From contig CAZGWE010000003.1 of the NCBI GenBank assembly GCA_964529405.1, positions 17,192 through 81,191 of the forward strand: a stretch of 64,000 nt of DNA. The letters are read 5' to 3'. Positions 7,073 to 58,973 of this stretch are shown here, piece after piece; position 1 is the stretch's first letter, and each line of letters starts with the position of its first letter. Source of the stretch: an uncultured Candidatus Saccharibacteria bacterium (lineage in GTDB: Bacteria > Patescibacteriota > UBA1384 > XYA2-FULL-43-10 > 1-14-0-10-43-13). The position numbers were made by a program, and so were the translations under genes. Under the pieces are notes generated by a model that made no database searches, had not been told where the DNA came from, and saw only the letters and a program-made list of their open reading frames with translations.

Positions 7073-9157
7073 ATGGATATTATTGCAATTATTCAAGCCA
7101 GAGTCGGTTCGACCCGCTTACCTAATAAAGTTCTTTTACCATTGGGTGGCAAAACTGTACTCGAGCAGGTTGCGAGCCGAGTCGGCAGAAGCAAGCTTAT
7201 CAACAAGGTAATGGTCGCCACGACTACAAATAGTGACGATGACGCTATTGTTGAAATATTAGAAAAAGCTGGAATAGAGAGTTTCCGCGGCTCTGAAAAT
7301 GACCTTCTTGACCGCTATTACCAAGCAGCCAAACTTCATAAGCCAAAACATATAGTTAGAATCACGGCCGACTGTCCTCTAATTGATTCCGACGTCATTG
7401 ATGCAGTGATCAGTCTTCATCTTAAGGACAAAAATGATTATACTGCAAGCGCTTTCGTTGAAACCTTTCCGGATGGTCTTGATGTTGATGTAATGACCTT
7501 TAAGGCTCTTGAGGAAAGCTGGAAAAATGCCACCATTCCCTATCAAAGAGAGCACGTCACTCAATTCATCGCCAAAAATCCCCATCGGTTCAAAATAGGC
7601 AATCACTATCATACCGAGAACCTGTCTGATAAGCGATGGTGCATGGACGAACCCAATGATTATGCTTTCGTCGAGGCTGTTTACAGCGCGCTTGGGGCCG
7701 AGCGGGACTATTTCGGAATGGAAGATGTTTTGCGCTTCTTGTCGGCTAATCCAGATGTAGAAAAAATCAATCAAAACATCATCCGGAACGCCGGCATCTT
7801 AAAATCGACTGGCGCCGAGGCTGATTTGTTATTAGAAAGGAAAACGATGAGAACCGGACAAAATCTCTACAAGCGCGCCAAGGGCATTATTCCCGCCGGC
7901 ACGCAAATTCTTTCCAAGCGGCCGGAGCTGCACCTGCCAGGAGGCTGGCCCTCCTACTACAAGAAGGCCAAAGGCTGCGAAATCTGGGATATGGATGGCA
8001 AAAAATATGTTGATATGAGCTATATGGGTATTGGCGCCTGCGCTATCGGTTACGCCGACCCCGATATTGATAAAGCCGTTAAAAAAACTATCGACAACGG
8101 TATTGCCGCTACATTTAATTCACCAAAGGAACTCGAGCTGGCCGATATGCTTTTGGAGCTGCACCCATGGGCAGATATGGTTCGTTATGCTTGCGGCGGC
8201 GGCGAGATTATGGCTATTGCCATCAGAATTGCCCGGGCCAAATCCGGCAAGGACAAGGTGTTGTTTTGCGGCTATCACGGCTGGCACGATTGGTACTTAA
8301 GCTCCAACCTTGCTGACGATAAGGCGCTTGACGGCCACCTCTTACCCGGTCTGAAACCGCTCGGCGTACCACGCGCCTTAAAGGGTACGGCCATGCCATT
8401 TATGTACAACGATACCGAAGCTTTCTTGAAGTTAGCCAAGAAGCACAAAGGTGAAATCGGTGCTGTTGTCATTGAAGGTATGAGGAGTTATGAACCAGTA
8501 AAGGGTTTTTTGGAAACTATCAGAAAAGTAACCAAAGAGGAAAAAATTCCATTTATTATTGATGAAGTCTCATCAGGTTTTCGCTTGACCACCGGCGGCG
8601 CTCATATAAAGCTGGGCATTAAGCCAGATATGGCAGCCTTCGCTAAAGCTCTGGGTAACGGCTATCCAATTGCCGCCGTTATTGGCAAAAAAGAGGTCAT
8701 GGATGTGGTTGAGGACTGTTTTATTAGCTCAACCAACTGGTCAAATAATGTTGGCTTTGCTGCTGCTATCGCATCCTTGAAAAAGATGAAGGAGAAGCAC
8801 GTTGTCGACCATTTAATTAAGATGGGTAAAAAGGTGCAAGACGGCTGGGCAAAGATGGCTAAAAAAAACGGAGTTAATATTCACCTCTCCGGATTCTATG
8901 CCATTGGCCACTTTGATTTTGAATATGAAAATCCGCTAGTCTTAAAAACCCTCTTTACTCAAGAGATGTTAAAGCGAGGTTTCCTGGCAACCAACGCCTA
9001 CTACGCTTCGTATGCCCACAAAACCAAGCACATTAAAGCGTATTTAGAAAAGTGCGACGAGGTCTTTGCCATTGTTGCTGAAGCTATCAAATCAGGCAAG
9101 CCGGAAAGTTATTTAGAAGGGAATATCTGCCATGCCGGATTTAGAAGACTCACCTAG
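7073..9157 (+). CDS. bifunctional fusion: N-terminal acylneuraminate/CMP-sugar cytidylyltransferase-like (SpsF/PseF-like) domain + C-terminal class-III aminotransferase (glutamate-1-semialdehyde aminomutase-like)
   Basis: The N-terminus IIQARVGSTRLPNKVL ... ITADCPLID matches the CTP_transf_3 family. The C-terminal half (GWPSYYKKAKGCEIWDMDGKKYVDM ... GYHGWHDWY ... DEVSSGFR) matches HemL-like class-III PLP enzymes. Confidence 0.65.
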   Translation: MDIIAIIQARVGSTRLPNKVLLPLGGKTVLEQVASRVGRSKLINKVMVATTTNSDDDAIVEILEKAGIESFRGSENDLLDRYYQAAKLHKPKHIVRITADCPLIDSDVIDAVISLHLKDKNDYTASAFVETFPDGLDVDVMTFKALEESWKNATIPYQREHVTQFIAKNPHRFKIGNHYHTENLSDKRWCMDEPNDYAFVEAVYSALGAERDYFGMEDVLRFLSANPDVEKINQNIIRNAGILKSTGAEADLLLERKTMRTGQNLYKRAKGIIPAGTQILSKRPELHLPGGWPSYYKKAKGCEIWDMDGKKYVDMSYMGIGACAIGYADPDIDKAVKKTIDNGIAATFNSPKELELADMLLELHPWADMVRYACGGGEIMAIAIRIARAKSGKDKVLFCGYHGWHDWYLSSNLADDKALDGHLLPGLKPLGVPRALKGTAMPFMYNDTEAFLKLAKKHKGEIGAVVIEGMRSYEPVKGFLETIRKVTKEEKIPFIIDEVSSGFRLTTGGAHIKLGIKPDMAAFAKALGNGYPIAAVIGKKEVMDVVEDCFISSTNWSNNVGFAAAIASLKKMKEKHVVDHLIKMGKKVQDGWAKMAKKNGVNIHLSGFYAIGHFDFEYENPLVLKTLFTQEMLKRGFLATNAYYASYAHKTKHIKAYLEKCDEVFAIVAEAIKSGKPESYLEGNICHAGFRRLT

Positions 9158-9698
9158 CCAAATTAAAACCAAACTTAAGGCCGAATTTAAGACTGTTGGC
9201 ACTCGCCCAAAATCACCTCTCGAATCCTTTGACGGGATCGTTGTTCTGTCTGCCGAAGAGACAGATATCTCCGGCGAAAATAAGGAACGTCTTTTAGCCG
9301 GTCTTAACCTTATGGTCAAGATAAAAACGGGCGGCAATTTTATTTTCCTTGGCACCAAAATCCACAACGCCGGCGCAGAGAATTATATCTTGCAAAACCA
9401 CCCCGATATTGAGGCAAACTTTCCCGCTAAACGGAAAGAGGCCTCAACCAGAACGCAGATAAAGGACCTTTCAGCCTTTCTGCATAAAAAACCTCTCTCA
9501 AAGCTTTTGATAGTCTCGCAAGCCTATCACATACCGCGCATTGACCGTTACTGCCAAAGATATATGCCGGATCAATTATATGATGTCTCTCCGGTCGGCG
9601 ATATTAAATCATACGCCAAACAAGTTGAAGTCGAAATTAATAAGATCATCAAATACGCCGGCCAGGGGGACCTGGATCTTTTTCTAACGCACAATTAA
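9132..9698 (+). CDS. DUF218 (YdcF/SanA-like) domain protein
   Basis: 188 aa; IVVLSAEE ... SQAYHIPR resembles the DUF218 signature (xYHMxRA). Overlaps upstream gene by 26 nt. Confidence 0.35.
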   Translation: MPDLEDSPSQIKTKLKAEFKTVGTRPKSPLESFDGIVVLSAEETDISGENKERLLAGLNLMVKIKTGGNFIFLGTKIHNAGAENYILQNHPDIEANFPAKRKEASTRTQIKDLSAFLHKKPLSKLLIVSQAYHIPRIDRYCQRYMPDQLYDVSPVGDIKSYAKQVEVEINKIIKYAGQGDLDLFLTHN

Positions 9699-9713
9699 CT
9701 TGGAACGCAGCTT

Positions 9714-10628
9714 ATGGCAACAAAAAAACGCGGAACAAGGAGCGAACACAGAGGTCCGGTTATTGAAAATCATAAAGGGCATGAAATCATAGACTGCAAA
9801 GTGTGCAAATTCAAGCACGTCAATCCGATACCCACCGGCCAGGAGATCAATGATTTTTATGCCAGGTTCTACACCGACGAAAAGCCCAACTACTTCAAAG
9901 ATGCCGAGGAGGATCTGGAGTGGTGGCTGGCGGGATATAGGAACTATTACACTTTATTTGAAAAATATACCAAAGGTAGAAAGCTACTCGATATTGGTTC
10001 GGGGCCAGGCTACTTTCTAAAGTGCGGGGCTGATCGCGGCTGGGAGATTGTGGGCTTTGAACCTTCTAAACACGCTTACGATTATTCAACCAAGATGGGA
10101 CTCAAAGTCATCAATGATTATTTTAACATGGCTAAAGCCAAAGCGCTTGGTAAATTCGATGTTGTTTCATTAACCTTGGTTCTCGAACATCTGCCTAACC
10201 CTAAAAAATTGATCGAAGAAGCCAAGAGCATTTTAAACCCGGGGGGGTTACTTCTCATTCTATCGCCTAACGAATTTAACCCGCTTCAAAGGGCTGTAAT
10301 TAAGAGCAATAATTTAGAACCATGGTGGGTCTGCCCGCCGGAGCACATTAATTATTTTGATTTTCCATCTATCAAGAAATTAGTCAAATCCACCGGCCTT
10401 AAAATAGTAGATTCGCTGGCCACTTACCCCATGGAGCTCTTTCTGCTTAACGGCGAGATCTATATTAGCAACCGTGAGATAGGGCGAGGTTGCCATAAAA
10501 AACGAAAATCTTTTGAGATGAACCTCTACCAGCAAGACCCCGAGATCCTAAACAATCTCTACCGCAGCTTTGCCCGAAATAACATCGGCCGGGAATTTAT
10601 TATTATCGCCAAAAAAAATGAAAAATAA
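9714..10628 (+). CDS. class I SAM-dependent methyltransferase with N-terminal Cys-pair zinc-ribbon
   Basis: LLDIGSGPGYF (motif I), LEHLPNP, PGGLLLI motifs; CKVCKF Cys pair near N-terminus. Confidence 0.65.
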   Translation: MATKKRGTRSEHRGPVIENHKGHEIIDCKVCKFKHVNPIPTGQEINDFYARFYTDEKPNYFKDAEEDLEWWLAGYRNYYTLFEKYTKGRKLLDIGSGPGYFLKCGADRGWEIVGFEPSKHAYDYSTKMGLKVINDYFNMAKAKALGKFDVVSLTLVLEHLPNPKKLIEEAKSILNPGGLLLILSPNEFNPLQRAVIKSNNLEPWWVCPPEHINYFDFPSIKKLVKSTGLKIVDSLATYPMELFLLNGEIYISNREIGRGCHKKRKSFEMNLYQQDPEILNNLYRSFARNNIGREFIIIAKKNEK

Positions 10629-19531: not shown

Positions 19532-20135
19532 GTATTTTATCGCCCTGACTCCCGAGCAACAGCTCTACAAAAAGATTGAATCGGTTAAGTCTTATGTTTT
19601 CGAGAACTTTGGCGACCAAGCTTATTTGCTTGACCCGCCCCACTCCACCCTCTGTGTCGGCACGACCGGTAATATCAAAGAAACTAACCGAGAGCTAGAA
19701 AAATTCACCGAGACAAACAAAAGGGTCGGTTTTGGAATAATCGATTGGCTCATCTTCGCCAATGACAAAGTGACAAAATCGTCATCACTGGTTTTGAGGT
19801 TTGATGAAAATTGCATCAAATCCCTTAGGCAGGTTCAAGCCGGAGTTCTGGATGCCGTCGCACCGTCGAGAAGCAAGGCGTGCGCAAAGAGGTATAAGAG
19901 CGTTAAATTTTCGCCAGTCGAGAAGCAAAATTTAATAAGCTTCGGCTTTCCCTATGCCGGCGAGATCTGGATCCCTCACATCGGCATCTGCGCTATGTCC
20001 GATGAACACATCGCCGATGTCAAGACAAAATTTGATATCAAAGACTTTAGCCAGCCAAGCTGTTTCGACCGGATTTCTTTATATAAACTTGAGAGCGAAA
20101 AACCAATATTAATTAATTCGTTTGATCTACTATGA
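19524..20135 (+). CDS. hypothetical protein, weak 2H-phosphoesterase-like features
   Basis: PHSTL and PHIGI resemble degenerate HxT/S motifs. The longer track ORF overlaps the upstream gene, so the start is taken at the internal MIEYF. Confidence 0.25.
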   Translation: MIEYFIALTPEQQLYKKIESVKSYVFENFGDQAYLLDPPHSTLCVGTTGNIKETNRELEKFTETNKRVGFGIIDWLIFANDKVTKSSSLVLRFDENCIKSLRQVQAGVLDAVAPSRSKACAKRYKSVKFSPVEKQNLISFGFPYAGEIWIPHIGICAMSDEHIADVKTKFDIKDFSQPSCFDRISLYKLESEKPILINSFDLL

Positions 20136-20836
20136 AACATCAATTGTTAAAAAAAATGGTCTGGCAAGCTAATCGGGCGCTATCTGGTTCCGGTTTGATT
20201 ATTTTAACCTGGGGCAATGCCAGCGCTTACGATCGTGAAGCGGGCGTAATTGCTATCAAACCAAGCGGTGTTTCTTACGCCGAGATGAAAGTTGACGATA
20301 TCGTCGTACTTGATATCGAGGGTAAAATTATTGATGGTAATAAAAAACCGAGCGTCGATACGCCAACGCATTTAGAAATTTACCGCAGCTTTCCAGCTAT
20401 TAACGGTATCGTCCACACCCACTCACTCCACGCCACCGCCTTCGCCCAGGCCGGCACACCGATTGAATGCCTCGGCACAACACACGCCGACCACTTTTAC
20501 GGCCGTATTCCGGTGGCCAGAAAGTTATTGAAAAGAGAAATGGACGCCTATGAAAAAAACACCGGCAAGGTCATCGTTGAATTATTCCGCCAAGAGCAAC
20601 TCGATCCGCTTCATGTTCCGGGCTGTCTGGTGGCCGGCCACGGCGTCTTTACCTGGGGCAAGAGTGCTGATGACGCAGTCAATAATGGGATTGTTGCCGA
20701 GTTTCTGGCTAAGGCGAATCTGGCAACTTGCACTATTAACAACAAGACAGTGAAACTGCCTAAGCACATTCTGGAAACCCATTTTTTAAGAAAACATGGT
20801 AAAAATAGCTATTATGGACAAGGAGAAAAGAAATGA
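20132..20836 (+). CDS. class II aldolase/adducin-family protein, L-ribulose-5-phosphate 4-epimerase (AraD)-like
   Basis: 234 aa; IKPSGV, VHTHS, GHGVFTWG motifs of AraD/FucA family; 4-nt overlaps on both sides (operon). Confidence 0.7.
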   Translation: MKHQLLKKMVWQANRALSGSGLIILTWGNASAYDREAGVIAIKPSGVSYAEMKVDDIVVLDIEGKIIDGNKKPSVDTPTHLEIYRSFPAINGIVHTHSLHATAFAQAGTPIECLGTTHADHFYGRIPVARKLLKREMDAYEKNTGKVIVELFRQEQLDPLHVPGCLVAGHGVFTWGKSADDAVNNGIVAEFLAKANLATCTINNKTVKLPKHILETHFLRKHGKNSYYGQGEKK

Positions 20837-33493: not shown

Positions 33494-34435
33494 TTAACGA
33501 TTGTCCAGGTATTCGCCCAGCATCTTCTGCCAAGATCTGACTTTAATAGCCAAGGCTTGTTCAATTTTTGATTTGTCTAAATATGAATAAGCCGGGCGCT
33601 TGGCTTTTTGGGGATACTGATTACTGGTAATCGGCTTGACTTCGATTTTGATATTAGATTGCTTAAATATTTCAACTGCAAAGTCATACCAGGAACAGGC
33701 ACCCGTGCCGGAGAAATGGTAAGTGCCGTAGGGTAACGTCGGACGTTGATCGGTTGCGAGGCCCGTTTCGGTTTTCGGTAACGTTAGACGTGGCCTCTCG
33801 ATGATACGGGCATCGTTACCGTAACCGCTAGACGCAATCCGATCTATCACTTCAACTAAATCCCCCGTGTAAGTTGGCGATCCGATTTGGTCATTGACAA
33901 CCGATAATTCATTACGCTCTTTGGCCAGGCGCAACATTGTCTCAACAAAATTTGTTCCCGGGTGGCCTTCCGGCAGTTCGCCAAACAACCAGGCAATGCG
34001 CAGAATGTAATATTTATCGCAGATTTTAGCCACGGCTTTTTCACCCTCATACTTTGTCATACCATAGACCGAGAGAGGGTTAGGCGTTTGGCGTTCGGAG
34101 TAGGGCGTATTTTGTTTGCCATCAAAAACATAATCGGTTGAGATGTAGATTAATGTTGCATCATTCGCCTTGGCTGCTTTGGCCACATTCTCCGTCCCGT
34201 AAACATTTATTCTGCGGCATAGCTCCTCGTTTTCTTCCGCCGCGTCAACTTTTGTATAAGCCGCACCATGGATGATAAATTTAGGTTCTTCTCGGCCAAT
34301 AACTTCATTGACAATCCCTGGATTAGTAATATCCATATCGTCGGAATCGGTCAGAATTAGTTTGCAGTTGGCGGATAGCAGTTGGCGGATTTTATAACCA
34401 AGCTGGCCCTTGGCACCAGTCACCAATATTTTCAT
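33494..34435 (-). CDS. rmlD: dTDP-4-dehydrorhamnose reductase (RmlD) carrying an in-frame ~30-aa insertion derived from a repeat element
   Basis: MKILVTGAKGQLG ... YISTDYVF ... YGMTKYEGE motifs of RmlD. There is an extra segment GNDARIIERPRLTLPKTETGLATDQRPTLPY immediately before the conserved GTYHFSG block. The start is taken at ATG 34435; the track ORF extends to a TTG at 34507. Confidence 0.75.
   Translation of the reverse strand: MKILVTGAKGQLGYKIRQLLSANCKLILTDSDDMDITNPGIVNEVIGREEPKFIIHGAAYTKVDAAEENEELCRRINVYGTENVAKAAKANDATLIYISTDYVFDGKQNTPYSERQTPNPLSVYGMTKYEGEKAVAKICDKYYILRIAWLFGELPEGHPGTNFVETMLRLAKERNELSVVNDQIGSPTYTGDLVEVIDRIASSGYGNDARIIERPRLTLPKTETGLATDQRPTLPYGTYHFSGTGACSWYDFAVEIFKQSNIKIEVKPITSNQYPQKAKRPAYSYLDKSKIEQALAIKVRSWQKMLGEYLDNR
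33752..33826. repeat. MITE-like repeat, copy A (inside rmlD coding sequence, in frame)
   Basis: GGTTGCGAGGCCCGTTTCG ... GATACGGGCATCGTTACCGTAACC; shares both ends with copies B and C. Confidence 0.7.
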
Positions 34436-34462
34436 AAAATTCCTCTTCGTCTTATGTTTAAG

Positions 34463-34553
34463 GGTTGCGAAGCCCGTTTCGTTTAGCGTTATTCGGCTAC
34501 GGTTCAAGATGAACGACGTAACCGCCTAACGATACGGGCATTGTTACCGTAGC
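34463..34553. repeat. MITE-like repeat, copy B (rmlD-rmlB intergenic)
   Basis: GGTTGCGAAGCCCGTTTCG ... GATACGGGCATTGTTACCGTAGCC. Confidence 0.7.
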
Positions 34554-34562
34554 CCATTGATA

Positions 34563-35609
34563 TTAGATCCCTATTTTTGCTTTGGAATCTTGGCTTTTGG
34601 CTTTATTAGCTGCTGCCCTTTGGCTGTCTAAATACTCTTTTGAAATAATTCGTTCCCACCATTCTCGATTGTCTTGATACCATTCGATTGTCTTCTTGAT
34701 CCCCTCATCAAAGGTCACAGAGGGCTGCCAGCCGAGCTCACGGCTTATTTTTGAGTGATCCATAGCATAACGCATATCGTGACCCTTGCGATCCTCAACA
34801 AAGGTTTTTAAGGAATCCGGTTTGTTTAATGCCTCGAGAATGGCGTCAGCCATATCAATGCCGTTTTTCTCTGCGTCTCCTCCAATACAGTAAGTTTCAC
34901 CGTCTTTGCCCTCATGTAATATCGCATCGATTGCGCCGGTATGGTCTGTTACAAACAAATAATCGCGAACGGCTTTTCCGGAGCCATAGATCGGCAGCGG
35001 TTTGTCTTGCATGGCGTTTGTAATAAACAGCGGGACCACCTTCTCGGGAAAATGATACGGACCATAGTTGTTGGTGCAGTTTGAGATTGTGACAGGCAAA
35101 GCATAAGTCTCGCTATAGGCCCTTACCAGATGGTCTGAGCTTGCTTTTGAGGCTGAATACGGAGACCTGGGTGAATAAGGAGTATTTTCGGTAAACTTTT
35201 CTTCCGGCTTGTCTAGTCTTAATGCGCCAAATACCTCATCGGTCGAGACATGATGAAACCGCTTAATGTTTTTGGCTCTTGCGGCATCTAGCAACACCTG
35301 CGTCCCGATTACATTGGTCTCGACAAAGATGGCTGGAGCGCTGATTGATCGGTCAACGTGCGACTCGGCCGCAAAGTGGACTACCCAATCGCAGCCCTCC
35401 ATAGCCTTTTCAACGATATCGCGGTCGCAAATATCGCCTTGAATAAAAGAGTAATTCGGATTGTCCTCGACGGATTTTAGATTCTCAAGATTCCCAGCGT
35501 ATGTTAGCTTGTCCAAATTAACAATCTTATAATCCGGATACTTCTCCATCATATAAAGTATGAAGTTCGAGCCGATAAAGCCGGCCCCGCCGGTGACTAA
35601 TAGTTTCAT
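34563..35609 (-). CDS. rmlB: dTDP-glucose 4,6-dehydratase
   Basis: MKLLVTGGAGFIGSNF, full-length match to RfbB/RmlB pattern (YSASKASSD, NNYGPYHFPEK). Confidence 0.9.
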   Translation of the reverse strand: MKLLVTGGAGFIGSNFILYMMEKYPDYKIVNLDKLTYAGNLENLKSVEDNPNYSFIQGDICDRDIVEKAMEGCDWVVHFAAESHVDRSISAPAIFVETNVIGTQVLLDAARAKNIKRFHHVSTDEVFGALRLDKPEEKFTENTPYSPRSPYSASKASSDHLVRAYSETYALPVTISNCTNNYGPYHFPEKVVPLFITNAMQDKPLPIYGSGKAVRDYLFVTDHTGAIDAILHEGKDGETYCIGGDAEKNGIDMADAILEALNKPDSLKTFVEDRKGHDMRYAMDHSKISRELGWQPSVTFDEGIKKTIEWYQDNREWWERIISKEYLDSQRAAANKAKSQDSKAKIGI

Positions 35610-35624
35610 ATGACCACCAGATTT

Positions 35625-36176
35625 TTAATATTCAAAATTTACATCACTGTCTTTAAGCAGCGGGGCGTTTCTGTCTTTATCCGATAGTATTGGTTCGGAA
35701 ACGCCCCAGTCAACACCGATCTCCGAATCATCAAAGCGAATGCCGCGGTCATGCTCGGCTGAATAATATTCGTCAACTTTGTATTGGAATTCAGTATCTG
35801 GCTCAAGCGTTAAGAAACCATGAGCAAAACCTTTGGGAATAAAGAATTGTTTTTTATTCTCTGCCGACAACTCAACAGATACCCATTTCTTGTATGTCGG
35901 AGAGTTCTTGCGCAGATCGACAGCCACATCCAGAACCGCGCCCTTGGTACAGCGAATCAATTTGGCTTGAGCCTTTGGCGCAAGCTGAAAGTGCAAACCT
36001 CGCAAGATTCCTCTGGCCGCGCTCATCGAGTGGTTGTCCTGGACGAAGTCAACCTCAATGCCAAGTTCGGCCAACTTCTTCTTGCTATAAGACTCAAAAA
36101 ACCAACCCCGCTCATCGCCAAAAACATCCGGTTCGATAATTTTAACGTCTTCAATTTTGGTTGAAACAATCTTCAT
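35625..36176 (-). CDS. rmlC: dTDP-4-dehydrorhamnose 3,5-epimerase
   Basis: 183 aa; FGDERGWFFE, RGLHFQ, HGF cupin motifs of RmlC. Confidence 0.85.
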   Translation of the reverse strand: MKIVSTKIEDVKIIEPDVFGDERGWFFESYSKKKLAELGIEVDFVQDNHSMSAARGILRGLHFQLAPKAQAKLIRCTKGAVLDVAVDLRKNSPTYKKWVSVELSAENKKQFFIPKGFAHGFLTLEPDTEFQYKVDEYYSAEHDRGIRFDDSEIGVDWGVSEPILSDKDRNAPLLKDSDVNFEY

Positions 36177-36198
36177 AACTCCCCTGACGAAATTATCA

Positions 36199-36282
36199 CC
36201 CCCTCACTAAATTACGAATTAGCAGTCCGAGTTTGATTCGTACTTTCGCGTTTTCGTGCAAATTCGCAATTTAGTGAGGGGG
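36199..36282. repeat. long imperfect palindrome (stem-loop) in rmlA-rmlC spacer
   Basis: CCCCCTCACTAAATT (36199-36213) is the reverse complement of AATTTAGTGAGGGGG (36268-36282); inner TACGAATT / AATTCGCA arms. Confidence 0.8.
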
Positions 36283-36291
36283 GCGAAGTTA

Positions 36292-37017
36292 TTATACTTG
36301 CGCCCTGGCTTTCTCTGCCATAATCTGGTTGGCCCGCAGCAGACTATCGAACGTGCCGGCATCTTCCCAAACACCCTCGATAATATTAACCTTCAGCTCT
36401 CGTTTTTTGAGATAAACATTATTTAGGTCGGTAATCTCGATCTCGCCCCTGGCAGAGGGCTTCAAATTTTTAGCGTATTCAATAACCCGATTGTCATAAG
36501 TATAAATGCCGACTACGGCATAATCGCTTTTTGGTGTGGACGGTTTCTCCTCGATTGATAAAACTTTCATGTTTTTGTCGAATTCGGCCACACCAAACCG
36601 TTCCGGATCATGGACTTTTTTAGCAAAAACCATGGCGCCTTTTTCGAAAGATTTGACATCGCGCGAAAAATCATGGTCAAAGATATTGTCGCCGAGAATC
36701 ATAGTAACACTATCTTTGCCGATAAAATCCTCCCCGACGATAAAAGCGTCAGCTAAACCGCGCGGCTCTTCCTGGATGACATAGCTGAATCTAGCCCCAA
36801 ACTCCTTGCCGGTTCCCAGCAAATTCAAGAAGTGGCCGGAGTAATCGGGGGCAATGATGATCAAAATATCTTTGATGCCGGCGTTAATCAATGTCTCGAT
36901 CGGATAATAGATCATCGGTTTATTGTAAACCGGCAACAACTGTTTAGAAGTGATCTTAGTCAAAGGCCTAAGCCTTGTCGCACGCCCCCCCGCCAGAACG
37001 ATACCTTTCATCTTCAT
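36292..37017 (-). CDS. rmlA: glucose-1-phosphate thymidylyltransferase (short form)
   Basis: GIVLAGGRATRLRPLT, EEPRGLADA motifs; 241 aa short-type RmlA. Confidence 0.85.
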   Translation of the reverse strand: MKMKGIVLAGGRATRLRPLTKITSKQLLPVYNKPMIYYPIETLINAGIKDILIIIAPDYSGHFLNLLGTGKEFGARFSYVIQEEPRGLADAFIVGEDFIGKDSVTMILGDNIFDHDFSRDVKSFEKGAMVFAKKVHDPERFGVAEFDKNMKVLSIEEKPSTPKSDYAVVGIYTYDNRVIEYAKNLKPSARGEIEITDLNNVYLKKRELKVNIIEGVWEDAGTFDSLLRANQIMAEKARAQV

Positions 37018-41579: not shown

Positions 41580-41773
41580 TCTCTCTAAAAAGTTAAGCTG
41601 ATTAATTACAGTTTAAAATCCTAATTGCTAATTTCTAAATCTCTTCGAGAGCCTGAGGACTCCTCAGAGCCTCGAACGGCCTAAACAGATTCTAATGTTC
41701 AAATGTCAAAACGTTTTGAGATTATTTTTTGCATTTTGATATTCTTTAGGATTTAGGATTTCGTGCTTAGGAT

Positions 41774-41813
41774 TTATTGGTATTTGCAACACATGTGTTG
41801 CAAATACCAATAA
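41774..41813. repeat. perfect 40-bp palindrome TTATTGGTATTTGCAACACATGTGTTGCAAATACCAATAA
   Basis: Read directly; centre between 41793/41794. It extends to 42 bp with one flanking pair and overlaps the stop codon and last 13 codons of the Fur paralogue. Confidence 0.9.
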
Positions 41814-42223
41814 ACATAGTACTCAACCTGCTTGATTTTGCCCATACTTTTCAGATCTTTGGCAATGCGGCGGCTGGCCTGCCAGATGTCGTAAATCTTA
41901 ACGCACTCAGTGCAGATGAAGTGCCCGTGATACTGAGTGTTGGCATCATATCGGCTCTTGCCGTCATTTGCCACCACTTGGATAATAAAGCCATTATCAA
42001 CCGAATATTTTAAATTGCGATAGACGGTTGAAATATTGATTTTAGGTAAATCCTTTTTAACTGCCTCGAATATGTCCTCTGCCGTCGGATGGTTGCTAAC
42101 ACTCCGCAGATATTGAAGTATCAAGGTACGCTGTTTGGTCAAACGATTTCCGGTATTGTTGACGATCTCTTTGATATCCAAGACATCGTCTGCACACATT
42201 TCTTCCACCATATTTACCCTCAC
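41774..42223 (-). CDS. Fur-family metalloregulator paralogue (PerR/Fur-like), atypical C-terminus
   Basis: LTKQRTLILQYL, HPTAEDIF, HGHFICTEC motifs. The last 13 codons are encoded by a perfect palindrome, and the second CxxC pair is replaced by MCC. Confidence 0.7.
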   Translation of the reverse strand: MRVNMVEEMCADDVLDIKEIVNNTGNRLTKQRTLILQYLRSVSNHPTAEDIFEAVKKDLPKINISTVYRNLKYSVDNGFIIQVVANDGKSRYDANTQYHGHFICTECVKIYDIWQASRRIAKDLKSMGKIKQVEYYVYWYLQHMCCKYQ

Positions 42224-44012: not shown

Positions 44013-44462
44013 ATGAAGAAAGAAATAACAAACAATGACATAATTGCGGCAATAGAAAAAATCGATCACAAGGTTGATCAAGTTAAGGGCGAGCTAAAAA
44101 GTGACATAATTGCGGCAACAAAAAAGACGGATGACAAAGTCGATCAGGTTAGAGGTGAGCTCAAACAGGACATCACTGATATCAAAGCGTCGCTAGCGAG
44201 TTCAACCGATACTCTCAAGTTGGACATTACCGATATTAAAAAGGGATTTACAGATCTGGCTCAAACTGCCATCAACAGTTTTACTCACATTGAAAGACGG
44301 CTTGAAAAAGTAGAAACCAACACGACATGGATGCGAAATATCTTAGAGCAAAACACCGGAACATTACTGCGCTTGGACCAAGAGCGTCTTTTTACCATCA
44401 ACCATGTCAATCGGTTGGAAAACGAAATTAAACAAATCAAAGCCCAATTAAAGATCTCTTAG
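44013..44462 (+). CDS. coiled-coil protein with internal tandem 22-23-aa repeats
   Basis: DIIAAIEKIDHKVDQVKGELKSD / DIIAATKKTDDKVDQVRGELKQD / DITDIKASL... heptad-like repeats; corresponding ~66-bp DNA tandem repeat at 44037-44171. Confidence 0.4.
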   Translation: MKKEITNNDIIAAIEKIDHKVDQVKGELKSDIIAATKKTDDKVDQVRGELKQDITDIKASLASSTDTLKLDITDIKKGFTDLAQTAINSFTHIERRLEKVETNTTWMRNILEQNTGTLLRLDQERLFTINHVNRLENEIKQIKAQLKIS

Positions 44463-44968: not shown

Positions 44969-45682
44969 TTATCCCCTAGCTACCACCACTCCCCAAACCT
45001 TCTTAGCACCCGCTTCTTTTAACACCTTGGCGCACTCGTTTAGAGTCGAAAGAGTTGTAGCCACGTCGTCAACCAATAAAATCGTTTTGCCTTCAATAGA
45101 TTCAGCATCGGCAATTCTAAAAGCATCAGTGATGTTGGTCCGGCGTTTGGTACCAGAGAGCTTGGCCTGTGGATCAGTATATCTGGTTCTCTCCAGCGCC
45201 AGACTGCCATGAAGCTCCAGTTCATTCGAAAGATAGCGAGCCAGTAATTCAGCTTGGTTAAAGCCTCTCTCCTTCTCCTTTCGGGGATGCAGCGGCACCG
45301 GCACAACCCACAACAGATCGCCCCGGGGTAGTTTGTATCTTAATCTCTGACAAATTAATTCACCCAGCATCGGCGCCAGTTCCGCTAATCCGCCATACTT
45401 GAGTTCGTGAATCATCTCCTTGGTCGGACCCTGATCATAACGGGCTGAGACGATTAATCCGTCGAGCGATAAATTAAGGCGGCGCTTGCAATTTTGGCAA
45501 AATTCACCATAGCGGTTTATTCGTCCGCACTCCGGACAGGTTGGTGTTTGGATCCTTTCGATCCGGCCGGCGCAATCAAAACAGAGATAAACTCCCTCCA
45601 AGCCGCAACCGACACAGACTTTAGGAAAAAAGATGTCGAGAAAAAGATCCTTGGTTTGTGTTAATAAAGTCTTGGATTGCAT
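44969..45682 (-). CDS. comF: ComF-family protein (phosphoribosyltransferase domain with N-terminal Cys4 zinc finger)
   Basis: CVGCG ... CFDC ... CPECG Cys clusters plus C-terminal ILLVDDVATTLSTL PRTase motif. Confidence 0.75.
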   Translation of the reverse strand: MQSKTLLTQTKDLFLDIFFPKVCVGCGLEGVYLCFDCAGRIERIQTPTCPECGRINRYGEFCQNCKRRLNLSLDGLIVSARYDQGPTKEMIHELKYGGLAELAPMLGELICQRLRYKLPRGDLLWVVPVPLHPRKEKERGFNQAELLARYLSNELELHGSLALERTRYTDPQAKLSGTKRRTNITDAFRIADAESIEGKTILLVDDVATTLSTLNECAKVLKEAGAKKVWGVVVARG

Positions 45683-45708: not shown

Positions 45709-45802
45709 GGTTACGAAGCCAGTATCGTCAAAAGTCTGTCGGTCACGGCCTAAGAAACCAAAAGACATAACCGCTCAACGATACCGGCTTCGTTACCGTA
45801 AC
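45709..45802. repeat. MITE-like repeat, copy C (comF-hsp20 intergenic)
   Basis: GGTTACGAAGCC ... GATACCGGCTTCGTTACCGTAACC. The 3' end is an inverted copy of the 5' end (TIR GGTTACGAAGCC / GGCTTCG-TTACC-GTAACC). Confidence 0.65.
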
Positions 45803-45878
45803 CGTTTTACATTGTACTTCCAATTCTTTATTGACTATTATCCAGTAATTTAACTATAATGGATATAGTACACAAAGC

Positions 45879-46346
45879 ATGAAGCGCAGAACAACGCGAC
45901 AGGTATCCGAATGTTTCATGTTCCATGAATATAAAGGAGGGACGGTGCAAGAGGGAAATTTGCACGACGACTGGCTCTCTGAGACATCAGAGGGTGAACT
46001 TGCTATAGATGTTTGCCATGATGCGCACAACATCTATATTCTTGCACCTGTCGCTGGTGTCAAGGCTTCTGATGTTGACGTTTCCATTACCGACGAAGTT
46101 GTTACTATTCGCGGCCAACGCAAACCAAACCATGACGTCCCGGAGGAAAAGCACTTCACTCAAGAGTGCTACTGGGGACTTTTTTCTCGCTCCTATGTTT
46201 TGCCCATGGCCGTTAACTCCGAGGAAGCTAAGGCAACCCTTAAGGATGGCCTATTAAAAATTGTCATTCCAAAAGATGCCAAGGTTAAAACAAAAGTTCT
46301 AGAGATCATGGAAGAAGAACCAACATCCCTAATCAAAGAAAAATAA
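45879..46346 (+). CDS. Hsp20/alpha-crystallin family small heat-shock protein
   Basis: AIDVCHDAHNIYILAPVAGV ... VSITDEVVTIRGQRK ... LKDGLLKIVIPK alpha-crystallin domain; start may be internal Met at 45921. Confidence 0.7.
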   Translation: MKRRTTRQVSECFMFHEYKGGTVQEGNLHDDWLSETSEGELAIDVCHDAHNIYILAPVAGVKASDVDVSITDEVVTIRGQRKPNHDVPEEKHFTQECYWGLFSRSYVLPMAVNSEEAKATLKDGLLKIVIPKDAKVKTKVLEIMEEEPTSLIKEK

Positions 46347-46364: not shown

Positions 46365-47246
46365 ATGAAAAAAATACGTAAAGCCGTCGTTCCTGCTGCG
46401 GGGTACGGAACAAGATTTTTGCCCGCTTCAAAAGCTATGCCGAAAGAAATGCTGCCAATTGTTGACAAACCGGTTATCCAATATGTCGTCGAGGAGCTGG
46501 CTGAGGCTGGGATAGAGCAGATTATCATTGTTACCGGTTGGCACAAGAGAGCGATTGAAGACCATTTTGACCGCCATCTGGAGCTTGAGCACAAACTCGA
46601 GACAGCCGGAAAAGAAGCGCAGTTAAAAACGATCCGCGACTTATCGAACCTGGCAGAATTTGTTTATGTCAGGCAGAAAGAAGCGCGCGGCAACGGCGAC
46701 GCGATTTTAACGGCCAAGAATATCATCGGCAACGAGCCTTTTGTTGTGCTTTGGGGCGATGACTTTATTGTGGCTGAACCGTCCCGCACCAGACAGCTGA
46801 TCGAGGCTTACAACAAATACGGCACGACCATCGCCGCCGGCATCCGGACCAGCAAACCCGAAGATTATAAACGTTACGGCTACGTCAAGGGCGAAGAGAT
46901 CGAACCCGGCATCATCAAAATCTCCGAATTGGTCGAAAAACCGGGACCGAAAAATCCCCCCTCCAATCTGGCCGTCGTCTCCGGTTTTGTTTTCCCGCCG
47001 GAGATCTTTAATGCCCTGGAATACTATGAAACCGAAATCGGCCAGGAACTGGTCTGGGTTGACGGCGTCAATGTGCTTCGAGATCAGGGCCAGGATGCTT
47101 ATGCCACTGAAATCAAGAGCGGCAAATATTATGACTGCGGCAACATTACAGAGTATTTGAAAACCAATGTTGAGATGGCTTTGCGCCGCGACGATATTAA
47201 TGGCGAATTCAAAAAATTCATCAAAGAAACAGCACGGGGATTGTAA
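46365..47246 (+). CDS. galU: UTP--glucose-1-phosphate uridylyltransferase
   Basis: KAVVPAAGYGTRFLPASKAMPKEMLPIVDKPVIQY and VVLWGDD motifs. Confidence 0.85.
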   Translation: MKKIRKAVVPAAGYGTRFLPASKAMPKEMLPIVDKPVIQYVVEELAEAGIEQIIIVTGWHKRAIEDHFDRHLELEHKLETAGKEAQLKTIRDLSNLAEFVYVRQKEARGNGDAILTAKNIIGNEPFVVLWGDDFIVAEPSRTRQLIEAYNKYGTTIAAGIRTSKPEDYKRYGYVKGEEIEPGIIKISELVEKPGPKNPPSNLAVVSGFVFPPEIFNALEYYETEIGQELVWVDGVNVLRDQGQDAYATEIKSGKYYDCGNITEYLKTNVEMALRRDDINGEFKKFIKETARGL

Positions 47247-47339
47247 GTTTATAAAGTTATTAAAGTTTGTAAGGTTTATAAAGTTCGTAAAGTAAAACAG
47301 TAATTACCATTGAACTTTATAAACTTAAGGCGGAGGGAC

Positions 47340-55704: not shown

Positions 55705-55747
55705 AGGATATCCAGATTAATTTTTTATGTTTTGTCCGCAACAAATG

Positions 55748-55842
55748 TCAGATAACGCAATTGATAATAGACAGTGGAAGATAGAAGCCGGATATTGAAA
55801 TTGGAAGATTTAATTATTTGAAATTTGGATTTGAGATTTATT
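55748..55842. repeat. origin-proximal repeat family, copy 1 (yidC-yidD spacer)
   Basis: TCAGATAACGCAATTGATAATAGACAGTGGAAGATAGAAGCCGGATATTGAAATTGGAAG ... ATTTGGATTTGAGATTTAT; ~93% identical to copy 2. Confidence 0.8.
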
Positions 55843-56065: not shown

Positions 56066-56074
56066 TATTTATTT

Positions 56075-56185
56075 TTGATGATAGACAGTAGAAGATGGAA
56101 GATAGAATTTGAGGTTGGATGATGGAAATTGGAGTCTAGCTTCTAATCTCCAGTTTCTATTGTCTATCATCAATTATCTGAAGGC
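56075..56185. repeat. origin-proximal repeat family, rearranged hairpin-forming copy 3 (yidD-rnpA spacer)
   Basis: TGATGATAGACAGTAGAAGATGGAAGATAGAA ... GGAAATTGGAG resembles the core. The right end CTATTGTCTATCATCAATTATCTGAA is the inverted start of the element, so the two ends form a 16-bp stem. Confidence 0.6.
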
Positions 56186-56897: not shown

Positions 56898-56942
56898 CTT
56901 GGTATATTTTTGGTACAACTATTGCAGGGAGAACAAACGCCA

Positions 56943-58343
56943 ATGGATAAAAACGAAATATGGAAAAACGTCTTAGGCGAGCTGGAGGTCAGCATCTCTA
57001 AGCCGAACTTCGAAACCTGGTTTAGAAACACATTTCTGATTGATTACAAGAAAGGCTATTTTACAATCGGAGTGCCAACAATATTTATAGAAGACTGGCT
57101 TAGAAAGAAGCATTTGCGCGAGATACTACAAGCCTTACAGAAACAGGTTGACGACCAGGTACTGGGCATTAAATTCAAAATAGCTTCGCCTTCTCCCGAA
57201 CAAAGAATCTCTCTTGATAAAACTAAAGTTATCCACAAGCCTGTGGATAAACCCGCCGGACAAACAGCCTCAACCGGTGTCCAATTATTGCCTAAAAACA
57301 TCACCTTGAATGACGATTATAAATTTACCAATTTTATCGTCGGCCAATCAAACCAACTGGCCCATGCGGCTTCCCTGGCTGTTGCCAGCAAACCCGGCAC
57401 TATGTATAATCCGCTTTATATCTACGGCAACTCCGGATTGGGTAAAACCCATCTGATGCAAGCCATCGGCCACTCATACCTCGAAAATTATCCGGGCAAA
57501 AATGTTCTTTACGTGACGTCTGAAACATTCATTAACGAATTTATCAACGCTGTCGAAGCTGGACACGGCAAGGCCAAGAATTTCAAAGACCATTACCGCA
57601 ATGTTGATATCCTATTAATAGACGACATCCAGTTTCTCTCCAATAAAGAATCAACGCAGGAAGAATTCTTCCACACTTTTAACCATCTTCATCAAAATAA
57701 GAAGCAAGTAGTGCTTACCTCCGACCGGCCGCCCAAAGACATTAAGGGCTTGGAAGTCAGGCTAAAAACCCGTTTTGAAGGCGGCATGGTAGCCGATGTT
57801 ACCACACCGGATTTTGAAACAAGGGTGGCTATACTCAAACAAAAAGCCAAAAAGCTGAATATTGTTTTTAAAGAAGAAAAAATTGACGAAGTCCTGCATT
57901 TGATCGCCGAAAATATCCAATCTTCAATCAGGGAACTTGAGGGAACATTTACCAAAATTATTGCCACTTGCAACCTTGAGGGGAGTACGATCAACAAAGA
58001 CCGGGTTGCCTCCATTCTAAGCGGTATAATCCAAAAGAAAAAACAGGTTGTCACTCCGGAGTTAATTCTGCGGGAAGTCCATAAATTTTATCAGATTCCG
58101 CTCGAAGACATCCTGGGCAAAAAACGTACCAAGGAGATAGTTCTGCCGAGACAAATCACGATGTACCTGCTGCGCCATGAAGCTAATATGTCCTATCCGG
58201 AGATCGGCAAAAAAATCGGCGGCAAGGACCATTCAACCATTATCCACGGCTGCGAAAAGATTGAAGCCGATATTTCGGACAACCAGAGGATAAAAGAAGA
58301 CCTGGCTGTTTTGAAAGAAAAGATATACGCCATGGTACGATAA
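56943..58343 (+). CDS. dnaA: chromosomal replication initiator protein DnaA
   Basis: EIWKNVLGELEVSISKPNFETWF N-domain, GNSGLGKTHL Walker A, LLIDDIQF Walker B, C-terminal DNA-binding helix-turn-helix; start at ATG 56943. Confidence 0.95.
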   Translation: MDKNEIWKNVLGELEVSISKPNFETWFRNTFLIDYKKGYFTIGVPTIFIEDWLRKKHLREILQALQKQVDDQVLGIKFKIASPSPEQRISLDKTKVIHKPVDKPAGQTASTGVQLLPKNITLNDDYKFTNFIVGQSNQLAHAASLAVASKPGTMYNPLYIYGNSGLGKTHLMQAIGHSYLENYPGKNVLYVTSETFINEFINAVEAGHGKAKNFKDHYRNVDILLIDDIQFLSNKESTQEEFFHTFNHLHQNKKQVVLTSDRPPKDIKGLEVRLKTRFEGGMVADVTTPDFETRVAILKQKAKKLNIVFKEEKIDEVLHLIAENIQSSIRELEGTFTKIIATCNLEGSTINKDRVASILSGIIQKKKQVVTPELILREVHKFYQIPLEDILGKKRTKEIVLPRQITMYLLRHEANMSYPEIGKKIGGKDHSTIIHGCEKIEADISDNQRIKEDLAVLKEKIYAMVR

Positions 58344-58973
58344 ATCATAAAGCGTGAGATACTATTCATAGGCCGTTAGATATTTCACCTTAAAAATTAT
58401 ATGGCTTACTTATCCCCAACTTTTCAAGGCTAAATCGGGAATTAAACAAGTTAATATATTTAGTAATACTAATAGTAAGCGCTGTGGATTATGGGGAAAA
58501 GTTAAATTAAGTAATTTGAAACTTGAAATTTGAAACTTTTATTTGGGGATAAGATGGTGGATGAAGCGGTGATAAGGTGTGGATGAAACGGGGATAAGTT
58601 AAAAAATGCCAAAATCCGAATGCCAAATATCAGATAACGCAATTGATAATAGACAGTGGAAGATAGAAGCCGGATCTTGAAATTGGAAGTTTGAATTATT
58701 TGCCATTTGGATTTGGGATTTATAAATAATTTATCCACAACCAAAACGGCCTAAACGCCTTTTTTCCCCGGCTAAAATATCGCAAATAAAAATTATAATC
58801 CCAAATACAACAATTTAGCTAAATTTTTTCCCCGTTATCCACAGGTAACAAAAAAGATGGGGATAAATATTGTTTAATTGCTAAATTGTTTGCATAGCTA
58901 AAGATAAGCTTTGTTTCAAGAATGCTATTATCTTAAGATAACAATTTAACAATTGGTCGACGAAAGGAGACTC
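58344..58973. promoter_or_regulatory. candidate chromosomal replication origin (oriC) with DnaA-box cluster
   Basis: Two perfect TTATCCACA boxes (58731-58739, 58826-58834). Near-consensus boxes: TGTGGATTA 58483, GGGGATAAG x3, GTGGATGAA x2, GTGATAAGG. Position is dnaA-dnaN. AT-rich tracts present. Confidence 0.6.
58630..58723. repeat. origin-proximal repeat family, copy 2 (inside dnaA-dnaN oriC region)
   Basis: Near-identical to copy 1; ends 8 nt before a perfect DnaA box. Confidence 0.8.

Follow-up and report, generated by a model that had tools for sequence, protein, structure and literature searches.

In the 64-kb stretch of DNA analysed here (the window, to whose 64 kb all window-wide counts refer), rmlD, the gene for dTDP-4-dehydrorhamnose reductase, contains in frame one of three copies of a short palindromic repeat. 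The locus raises the questions of where such a repeat comes from and what its insertion has meant for the gene. The explanation that we consider quite probable is that a gene-less shell of a longer cassette, which carries a PF05635 gene between the same ends, came to lie in frame in a permissive, disordered junction of RmlD, where it is read through and tolerated.

Palindromic repeats lying within open reading frames (ORFs) are known among the Rickettsia palindromic elements (RPEs) and the repeats of the repetitive extragenic palindromic (REP) type, and in-frame colonisation of conserved genes is best documented in Rickettsia, some other bacteria too having REP-type repeats within ORFs (PMC3733652). 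In a separate literature, intervening sequences (IVSs) with an ORF for the S23p protein (PF05635) have been described in the 23S rRNA of Leptospira, Coxiella, Xanthomonas and Brucella; they are cut out by RNase III, their mobility has so far only been hypothesised, and in the Coxiella IVS heptamer repeats precede the S23p ORF (PMC4990558). New here are the occurrence of the repeat's arms across phyla, its PF05635-carrying parent, a second in-frame case in a leucyl-tRNA synthetase (LeuRS) and unrelated inserts in the same loop of other RmlD proteins.

Copies of the repeat in the window

An earlier note on this DNA had described three copies of an element resembling a MITE (miniature inverted-repeat transposable element), one of them in frame inside rmlD. 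All three are present where it placed them, with 3' ends within 1 base: copy A at 33752-33826, copy B at 34463-34554 and copy C at 45709-45803, all on the plus strand and with cores of 75-95 nt. The 24-base 3' end GATACSGGCWTYGTTACCGTARCC (degenerate) has exactly three matches in the window versus 0.00 expected, and the 19-base 5' end has three direct matches as well as three reverse-complement matches at the 3' arms, versus 0.10 expected; none of the three copies is expected by chance. Since the 5' 19-mer matches the 3' arms on the opposite strand, the ends are inverted repeats, as had been claimed, and copy C, in which the repeats were said to be clearest, is indeed the best-paired hairpin. 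On folding, each copy forms a long imperfect hairpin of -26 to -45 kcal/mol, with z-scores against shuffled sequences of -1.9 to -5.9. A covariance model built from 31 copies of the wider family scores the three at 81-91 bits and finds no other match in the window.

Copy A, which is antisense to rmlD and scores 81 bits, has a hairpin of -32 kcal/mol when folded from the plus strand and of -26 kcal/mol when folded as mRNA. Its arms depart little from the consensus of the family, with a single mismatch in the 5' arm and an exact 3' arm. Copy B (89 bits; hairpin z -3.2 to -3.5) is situated fewer than 730 bases from copy A in the same operon. From the rmlB stop (34563) to the rmlD start (34435) the spacer measures 127 bases, of which copy B takes up 92, with the ribosome-binding site of rmlD (GAGG) downstream of it; in relatives the rmlB-rmlD spacer measures 1-50 bases or contains an inserted small gene. 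Copy C (91 bits; -45.5 kcal/mol, z -5.9) is in a divergent spacer between a 237-aa ORF (44969..45682, minus strand) and a 155-aa ORF (45879..46346, plus strand).

Insertion of copy A in RmlD

The rmlD coding sequence (33494..34435, minus strand) encodes 313 aa, is identical as a gene call to P0001 and matches RmlD entries in the PDB with E values down to 4e-69. PF04321 is precomputed for the protein, which has the RmlD_sub_bind fold and the expected motifs, such as GAKGQLG, STDY (residues 99-102) and YGMTK (residues 124-128). As the earlier note stated, copy A is inside this reading frame and is translated; its core encodes residues 204-228, GYGNDARIIERPRLTLPKTETGLAT. The full insertion, in which the element's weak outer inverted repeat is included, corresponds approximately to 33743..33829 on the minus strand, i.e. 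87 nt or 29 codons (about residues 203-231), with boundaries uncertain by a few bases.

Alignment to orthologues and structure modelling, both proposed in the earlier note, place this insertion in a loop. The loop was measured between SPTYTxDLx and GxYHxSG, flanks that are recognisable in 116 of the 120 nearest homologues; it comprises 42 aa in the window protein versus 13 in uninserted homologues, a gain of 29 aa or 87 nt, and the minimal 13-aa form is found in 67 of the 116. When aligned to solved RmlD structures in the PDB, residues 201-234 of the query face only about four residues. An AlphaFold model made with 43 homologues has an overall predicted local distance difference test score (pLDDT) of 91.7 and a predicted TM score of 0.89, and agrees with 1vl0 with a target-normalised TM score of 0.95 and a root-mean-square deviation of 1.3 Å. 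In this otherwise canonical RmlD fold, residues 201-234 or so are modelled as a low-confidence coil (pLDDT 49-63) lacking secondary structure, between helix 190-203 and strand 237-241. All 71 columns that are invariant among the 43 homologues are kept, including GxxGxxG and T...YxxxK. Furthermore, a separate Logan assembly (SRR4343430) encodes an identical RmlD protein, which argues against an assembly chimera. In the predicted protein, stretches such as ...IASSGYGNDAR and ...ATDQRPTLPYGTYHFSGTGACSWYDFAVEIFK cross the junctions. The description of copy A as inserted in frame into an RmlD surface loop, with sibling copies between genes, is thus supported, the repeat family being overwhelmingly extragenic in other genomes and the insert a low-confidence coil between secondary-structure elements.

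The probable course of events is as follows. One short copy would have landed, or have been copied, into rmlD at the helix-to-strand junction of the C-terminal domain, contributing 87 nt, a multiple of three, in a stop-free frame. The ribosome would read through copy A and add about 29 disordered surface residues while leaving the catalytic core intact, so that the gene survives. The protein is presumably made and active, and the insertion was probably recent, given how closely the arms match the consensus.

The earlier note had also reported a reading frame open for 337 codons. The frame is indeed open, but the true coding sequence is 313 aa, and the 337-codon ORF starts at an upstream TTG and runs through copy B. 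The mechanically called ORF gains 24 upstream codons (MNRSRITLNETGFATLKHKTKRNF; 34436-34507) because copy B is open in the rmlD frame. Several database homologues of RmlD have similar repeat-derived N-terminal 'extensions', for example MNSPLSPNLNPKSQALSPK..., and such extensions of rmlD ORFs are probably annotation artefacts.

A family of repeats across phyla

Beyond the window, the exact 24-mer was found at 51 loci in about 30 metagenome-assembled genomes (MAGs) of a species-representative genome set. According to the labels on the MAG records, from which all phylum names are taken, these belong to at least seven phyla (Omnitrophota, Planctomycetota, Nitrospirota, delta-/Desulfobacteria, Bacteroidetes, Margulisiibacteriota and Curtissbacteria), and one Planctomycetota MAG carries the element on about 15 contigs. 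The 24-mer was present in 100 metagenome loci as well, and unmatched in viral contigs and plasmids, which were searched as possible vectors. The consensus arms are GGTTACGAnGCCCGTwTCG (5') and CGATACGGGCwTCGTTACCGTAACC (3'); they enclose a variable centre of 40-70 nt, the positions of the mismatches are conserved, and weaker outer repeats consist of GGTTAC/GGTAAC-like modules; the element measures about 90-125 nt. No Rfam family corresponds to the element, only tRNAs being returned for the window at gathering thresholds and for seven element-bearing loci at E<=1, and literature searches with the arm sequences as text gave nothing relevant.

Most copies are extragenic and usually single (mostly one per 8-kb locus), between ordinary housekeeping-type ORFs; where copies are paired, the genes between them are ordinary ORFs without transposase features. 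Their orientation relative to the neighbouring genes is the same in 31 and opposite in 37 tandem spacers, a further 14 being in convergent and 11 in divergent spacers, and core lengths modulo 3 are distributed 34/25/43. Unbiased orientation and lengths not confined to multiples of three indicate a family without coding constraint and without a strand-specific RNA role. A role of the latter type, such as that of a terminator, was rejected on the unbiased orientation and spacer type. Tandem or nested copies occur in a few genomes: in L004 (996-1255) the units are separated by a repeated 26-nt spacer, in L044 (5702-5952) two 24-mers are 131 nt apart, and in L048 (3800-3961) an extra internal copy resembling the 3' arm is found within the element.

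The close spacing of two of the three window copies in one operon, together with a third, unrelated 84-nt hairpin that fills the rmlA-rmlC spacer, could mean that the hairpins are not just parasitic DNA but are kept for a job in cis, such as processing by RNase III/E, stabilisation of the rmlBD transcript or binding of a protein; the conservation across phyla of the arm sequence and even of its mismatches suggests protein recognition. However, the roughly 150 copies have neither an orientation bias nor a preference for gene 3' ends and occupy tandem, convergent and divergent spacers alike, their neighbours are unrelated housekeeping genes, and no Rfam family matches. Compensatory changes in the stem were not seen, but the stem is near-invariant and so uninformative either way. 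We regard a function in cis as improbable.

A longer form that encloses a PF05635 gene

Several copies of the 3' arm seemed to have no 5' arm nearby; in many of these the 5' arm is 446-474 nt upstream. At least seven two-armed metagenome loci of this kind (L075, L078, L108, L091, L098, L116 and L142) contain, between arms separated by 446-474 nt, a single ORF of 131-145 aa, which may be in either orientation. The encoded protein matches PF05635 ('23S rRNA intervening-sequence protein') with E values of 5e-16 to 8e-17 and TIGR02436 ('four helix bundle protein') with E values of 1e-13 to 2e-14, in both cases above the curated cut-offs. In four more loci (L062, L081, L127 and L131) a PF05635 gene is found beside a 3' arm; with one-armed copies included, the count of gene-enclosing loci comes to about 10. 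The full-length form measures 470-500 nt, and its near-symmetrical arms pair in a long imperfect stem with the gene in the loop.

About 40 sub-terminal bases at each end match between the long and short forms, which identifies the short form as an internal-deletion derivative; it would retain some 40 nt from each end of the cassette. By this sequence comparison, all three window copies derive by deletion from the PF05635 cassette and have lost its gene. The label 'MITE-like' fits only loosely, in that the copies derive from a longer cassette with the same ends; it does not extend to the content of that cassette, which carries a PF05635 gene and no recognisable transposase. As to how the element moves, trans-mobilisation, recombination between copies and an RNA- or PF05635-dependent route are candidates.

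The size of the copies (75-125 nt) and their imperfect-palindrome form would also fit integron attC recombination sites, and some copies have outer boxes like RYYYAAC ... GTTRRRY, for example GTCTAAC ... GTTAGAC. Core boxes of this kind are lacking in the window copies, though, and the arrangement is not that of co-oriented cassette arrays, since copies are mostly single, in both orientations and between housekeeping genes. The cargo gene is inside the hairpin loop and not beside a single site, and no integrase cluster recurs nearby on ORF clustering. The inner arms of attC sites are not known to be conserved in sequence across phyla, unlike those of the present element. An attC identity, which was rejected on arrangement, orientation and cargo-gene position, deserves almost no credence.

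A second in-frame case and the RmlD loop in relatives

Across the roughly 150 copies, clear in-frame intragenic cases are rare. The best second case is a 919-aa LeuRS of the Curtissbacteria MAG L011, which carries GYGNEARIVKGKAVNVKDAKRQTLNETSLVT with orientation and frame unchanged from rmlD; residues 696-730 of this protein face residues 712-720 of T. thermophilus LeuRS. LeuRS is essential, so the in-frame copy must leave the enzyme functional. The two hosts are apparently both Patescibacteria, L011 according to the label of its record and the window organism judging from its RmlD relatives, a T4SS-pilin-type protein and the gene context. Besides the element, the L011 gene (210-2969) contains two inserts of low complexity, SGIRNQVLGTNRNPKPETRNQ and AHRAGPAGSSSHPTSS...ALDGTPS, both at positions that are gapped or unaligned relative to T. 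thermophilus LeuRS.

An occupied loop is not rare among the relatives of the window RmlD. In 34 of the 116 nearest homologues (29%) the same loop comprises 21-55 aa versus 13-18 aa elsewhere, and those inserted homologues that have source names are from Patescibacteria or Berkelbacteria. The earlier remark that in-frame insertions are rare therefore does not apply to this clade, in which these 34 homologues have a repeat-derived insert in the same loop. The inserts of the relatives are unrelated to the window element: they consist of two heptanucleotide-repeat blocks that form weak or imperfect hairpins, and they are genome-specific. The possibility that they are the same element was accordingly rejected, as they are genome-specific heptamer-repeat palindromes. 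P0003 and P0007 differ by an insert of 20 aa, outside which their identity is about 94%, and constitute a filled and an empty site, and in L156 one 66-nt repeat is present in frame at two sites of a single rmlD with 91% identity.

Heptanucleotide tandem arrays occur in nearly every rml-operon spacer of the Patescibacteria relatives as well as at several in-frame rmlD sites (L054 7128-11929; L053 8314-8394 and 10607-10688; L156 7466-7492, 9049-9073, 10360-10425 and 10717-10782), with units such as TAGGGCT, AGGACTC, GTCAGCA and AACCGCA. Genes of the PF05635/bAvd type are found between rml genes or just past the end of rmlD in L054 (7755-8147 and 11538-11897), where they are bracketed by heptamer arrays, and on the contig of P0072, whose rml spacers contain inserted genes (PF05635/bAvd and PDDEXK_3) at 8101-8481 and 9585-10001. 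Insertions have repeatedly come to lie at the rmlB-rmlD junction, which copy B occupies in the window. It is suggested, but not proven, that the loop inserts of the relatives are also shells of PF05635-type cassettes. Elsewhere in L055 a GIY-YIG gene was noted (20007-20303).

With many orthologues having extra residues at the same position, the segment in the window protein might be thought ancestral to RmlD and its intergenic look-alikes secondary copies. The same extra segment in relatives, which the earlier note had named as the finding that would overturn an insertion, was not encountered: the orthologue inserts are unrelated in sequence and built of heptanucleotide repeats. Moreover, 67 homologues have the minimal loop, near-identical proteins differ by the presence of an insert, and the DNA of the window insert matches a family that occurs in distant phyla between genes or around a PF05635 gene. 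The ancestral origin is already contradicted by these data, and hardly any probability can be assigned to it.

It might also be supposed that the insert never reaches the protein, the element being removed from the mRNA by intron-like excision and religation or skipped by ribosomal bypass. The element does form a strong hairpin, and IVSs of the parental type are excised from rRNA by RNase III (PMC4990558); that excision, however, leaves the 23S rRNA in two fragments (PMC4990558). Both clear intragenic copies are a multiple of three in length, stop-free and in the same frame, properties that are needed only if they are translated, and there is no take-off/landing codon pair or stop codon as in phage T4 gene 60. 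Removal from the mRNA is thus very unlikely.

The earlier note had offered, as the other outcome, a gene on its way to pseudogenisation. RmlD would then have been inactivated by the extra loop or by cleavage at the mRNA hairpin, its frame being open only for lack of time. Near-consensus arms in copy A fit the recent event that this requires, and IVS-type stems are RNase III substrates in rRNA (PMC4990558). Nothing in the gene points to decay, however: the frame is open across 313 codons with every invariant column kept, the insert is exactly 29 codons long at a disordered junction of a canonical core model, and the rest of the rml operon is intact. The tolerance of inserts in the same loop by 29% of the nearest homologues and the in-frame presence of the same element in an essential LeuRS gene also argue against inactivation, and a young pseudogene seems an unlikely explanation.

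A tolerated, read-through shell of the PF05635 cassette remains the explanation that we prefer, and several points weigh against it. The PF05635 gene itself is absent from the window, and from this genome no more than the three copies in these 64 kb can be seen. With the nearest orthologue at 67% identity and no empty-site allele of this lineage at hand, neither the exact boundaries of the insert nor any target duplication can be read. The intragenic screen needed an open frame across the element, so that a copy out of frame or splitting a gene would have counted as intergenic. No recurrent transposase or recombinase was found near the copies by all-versus-all clustering of 1,309 ORFs at the 51 genome loci, which yielded just a common ATPase-like family and pairs from syntenic loci. 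The flanks of 84 non-identical copies, in which conservation ends about 20 nt out on the 5' side and 7 nt out on the 3' side, have no direct repeat evident by inspection (no formal scan for target-site duplications was made). Finally, an imperfect stem of about 25 bp in the mRNA could be a target of RNase III, as IVS stems are in rRNA (PMC4990558), making the insertion costly rather than neutral.

Comparison with known classes of element

In its behaviour the element resembles the RPEs. These, too, are short palindromes scattered through a small genome, of which a minority are in frame in conserved, presumably functional genes and lengthen the protein by a short peptide where its surface tolerates one; nor is a dedicated transposase known for them. 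The RmlD loop and the L011 LeuRS are both in-frame, fold-compatible positions of this kind. The likeness is claimed for behaviour only, and the hosts here are Patescibacteria and other environmental phyla, not Rickettsia. Furthermore, the present element has an identifiable longer parent that carries PF05635 and, in contrast to the lineage-specific RPE and REP families, keeps its arm sequences across phyla. REP elements with their RAYT transposases (PMC3733652) share the imperfect palindromes, conserved mismatches and mostly extragenic location; they measure 20-40 nt compared with about 90-125 nt, have a GTAG head instead of GGTTAC-type ends, and no Y1-transposase gene recurs among the ORFs flanking the present copies.

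The resemblance to 23S rRNA IVSs concerns the architecture. The full-length relatives measure 470-500 nt, and the architecture, with a total of about 430-500 nt, is that of the IVSs of Coxiella and Leptospira: terminal inverted repeats form a long stem with a few mismatches, and a single PF05635 ORF fills the loop. PF05635 genes of the window's relatives also come with heptamer repeats, as does the S23p ORF of the Coxiella IVS. The window copies keep only the stem, having lost the ORF, and excision by RNase III is a feature of IVSs. A clear difference is the location: the copies are in intergenic spacers and protein-coding genes, whereas IVSs are in helix 25 or 45 of the 23S rRNA. There is no rRNA in the window, and neither an rRNA nor an Rfam family for the element was found, only tRNAs, at gathering thresholds in eight loci with full-length or ORF-carrying copies.

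Compared with bacterial MITEs such as Correia/NEMIS, ERIC/RU-1 and Nezha (PMC10969869, PMC2759123), the window copies are similarly short, non-coding and multi-copy with terminal inverted repeats; they too go back, by deletion, to a longer element whose ends they share, and are occasionally intragenic with an open frame. They differ in that the longer element is without a recognisable transposase, no target-site duplication is evident on inspection (again not a formal scan), and the whole element is a single hairpin instead of two short terminal inverted repeats. Because the copies have neither a transposase-bearing parent nor, on inspection, an evident target duplication, on both of which a strict definition of MITEs relies, and are not in rRNA as IVSs are, the element is filed as a variant: a new family with an IVS-type parent that belongs in neither the MITE nor the IVS class.

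Significance

The origin of the repeat in a PF05635 cassette links two literatures, that on MITEs and RPEs and that on rRNA IVSs. The same arms in MAGs of at least seven labelled phyla, with and without the gene, support the old, untested idea that IVSs are mobile. Patescibacteria would constitute a second clade with in-frame selfish repeats, including one in an essential aminoacyl-tRNA synthetase, and one loop of RmlD is marked as a natural insertion-tolerant site. On the practical side, shells inflate protein lengths and cause false N-terminal extensions in MAG annotation, as with copy B and the 337-codon ORF; gene-less shells can be masked by a simple covariance model.

A broader proposal, bold and on balance doubtful, is that PF05635 cassettes form a single cross-phylum class of mobile hairpins whose gene-less shells colonise intergenic spacers and, in Patescibacteria with their small genomes, surface loops of housekeeping enzymes; the repeated occupation of the RmlD loop by different repeat families, in 29% of the nearest orthologues, would reflect targeted insertion or copying and not tolerance alone. 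Such a class might move by an RNA route, in which a hairpin RNA excised by RNase III would act together with an Avd-like four-helix-bundle protein and a reverse transcriptase. If the proposal is true, a test would become possible for how intervening sequences of rRNA spread, a question that is 30 years old.

Operon context and other repeats in the window

The gene rmlD is the last of the minus-strand operon rmlA-C-B-D, and relatives with Pfam calls have the same order. Upstream of it, at 34563..37017, are the other dTDP-rhamnose genes of the operon, recognised from ORF translations: rmlB (34563..35609), rmlC (35625..36176) and rmlA (36292..37017). The hairpin between rmlA and rmlC (36199-36282) fills most of that spacer, is unique in the window and has 26-nt arms (CCCCCTCACTAAATTACGAATTAGCA and its complement) that are 92% complementary; with copies A and B, the rml operon carries three hairpin insertions of two kinds.

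Two 100-nt direct repeats with 93% identity (55742-55841 and 58624-58723) bracket dnaA (56910..58343), and upstream there are an inverted repeat of 33 nt and a related motif of 27 nt, the stretch 56074-56173 also belonging to this set; these may be origin-region repeats or DnaA-box clusters. In addition, the window contains a 66-nt tandem repeat of 2.2 copies (44029-44173), a 9-nt tandem repeat of six copies (TTGTAAAGT; 47241-47293) in the spacer after an ORF ending at 47246, and a perfect 42-nt palindrome (41773-41814).

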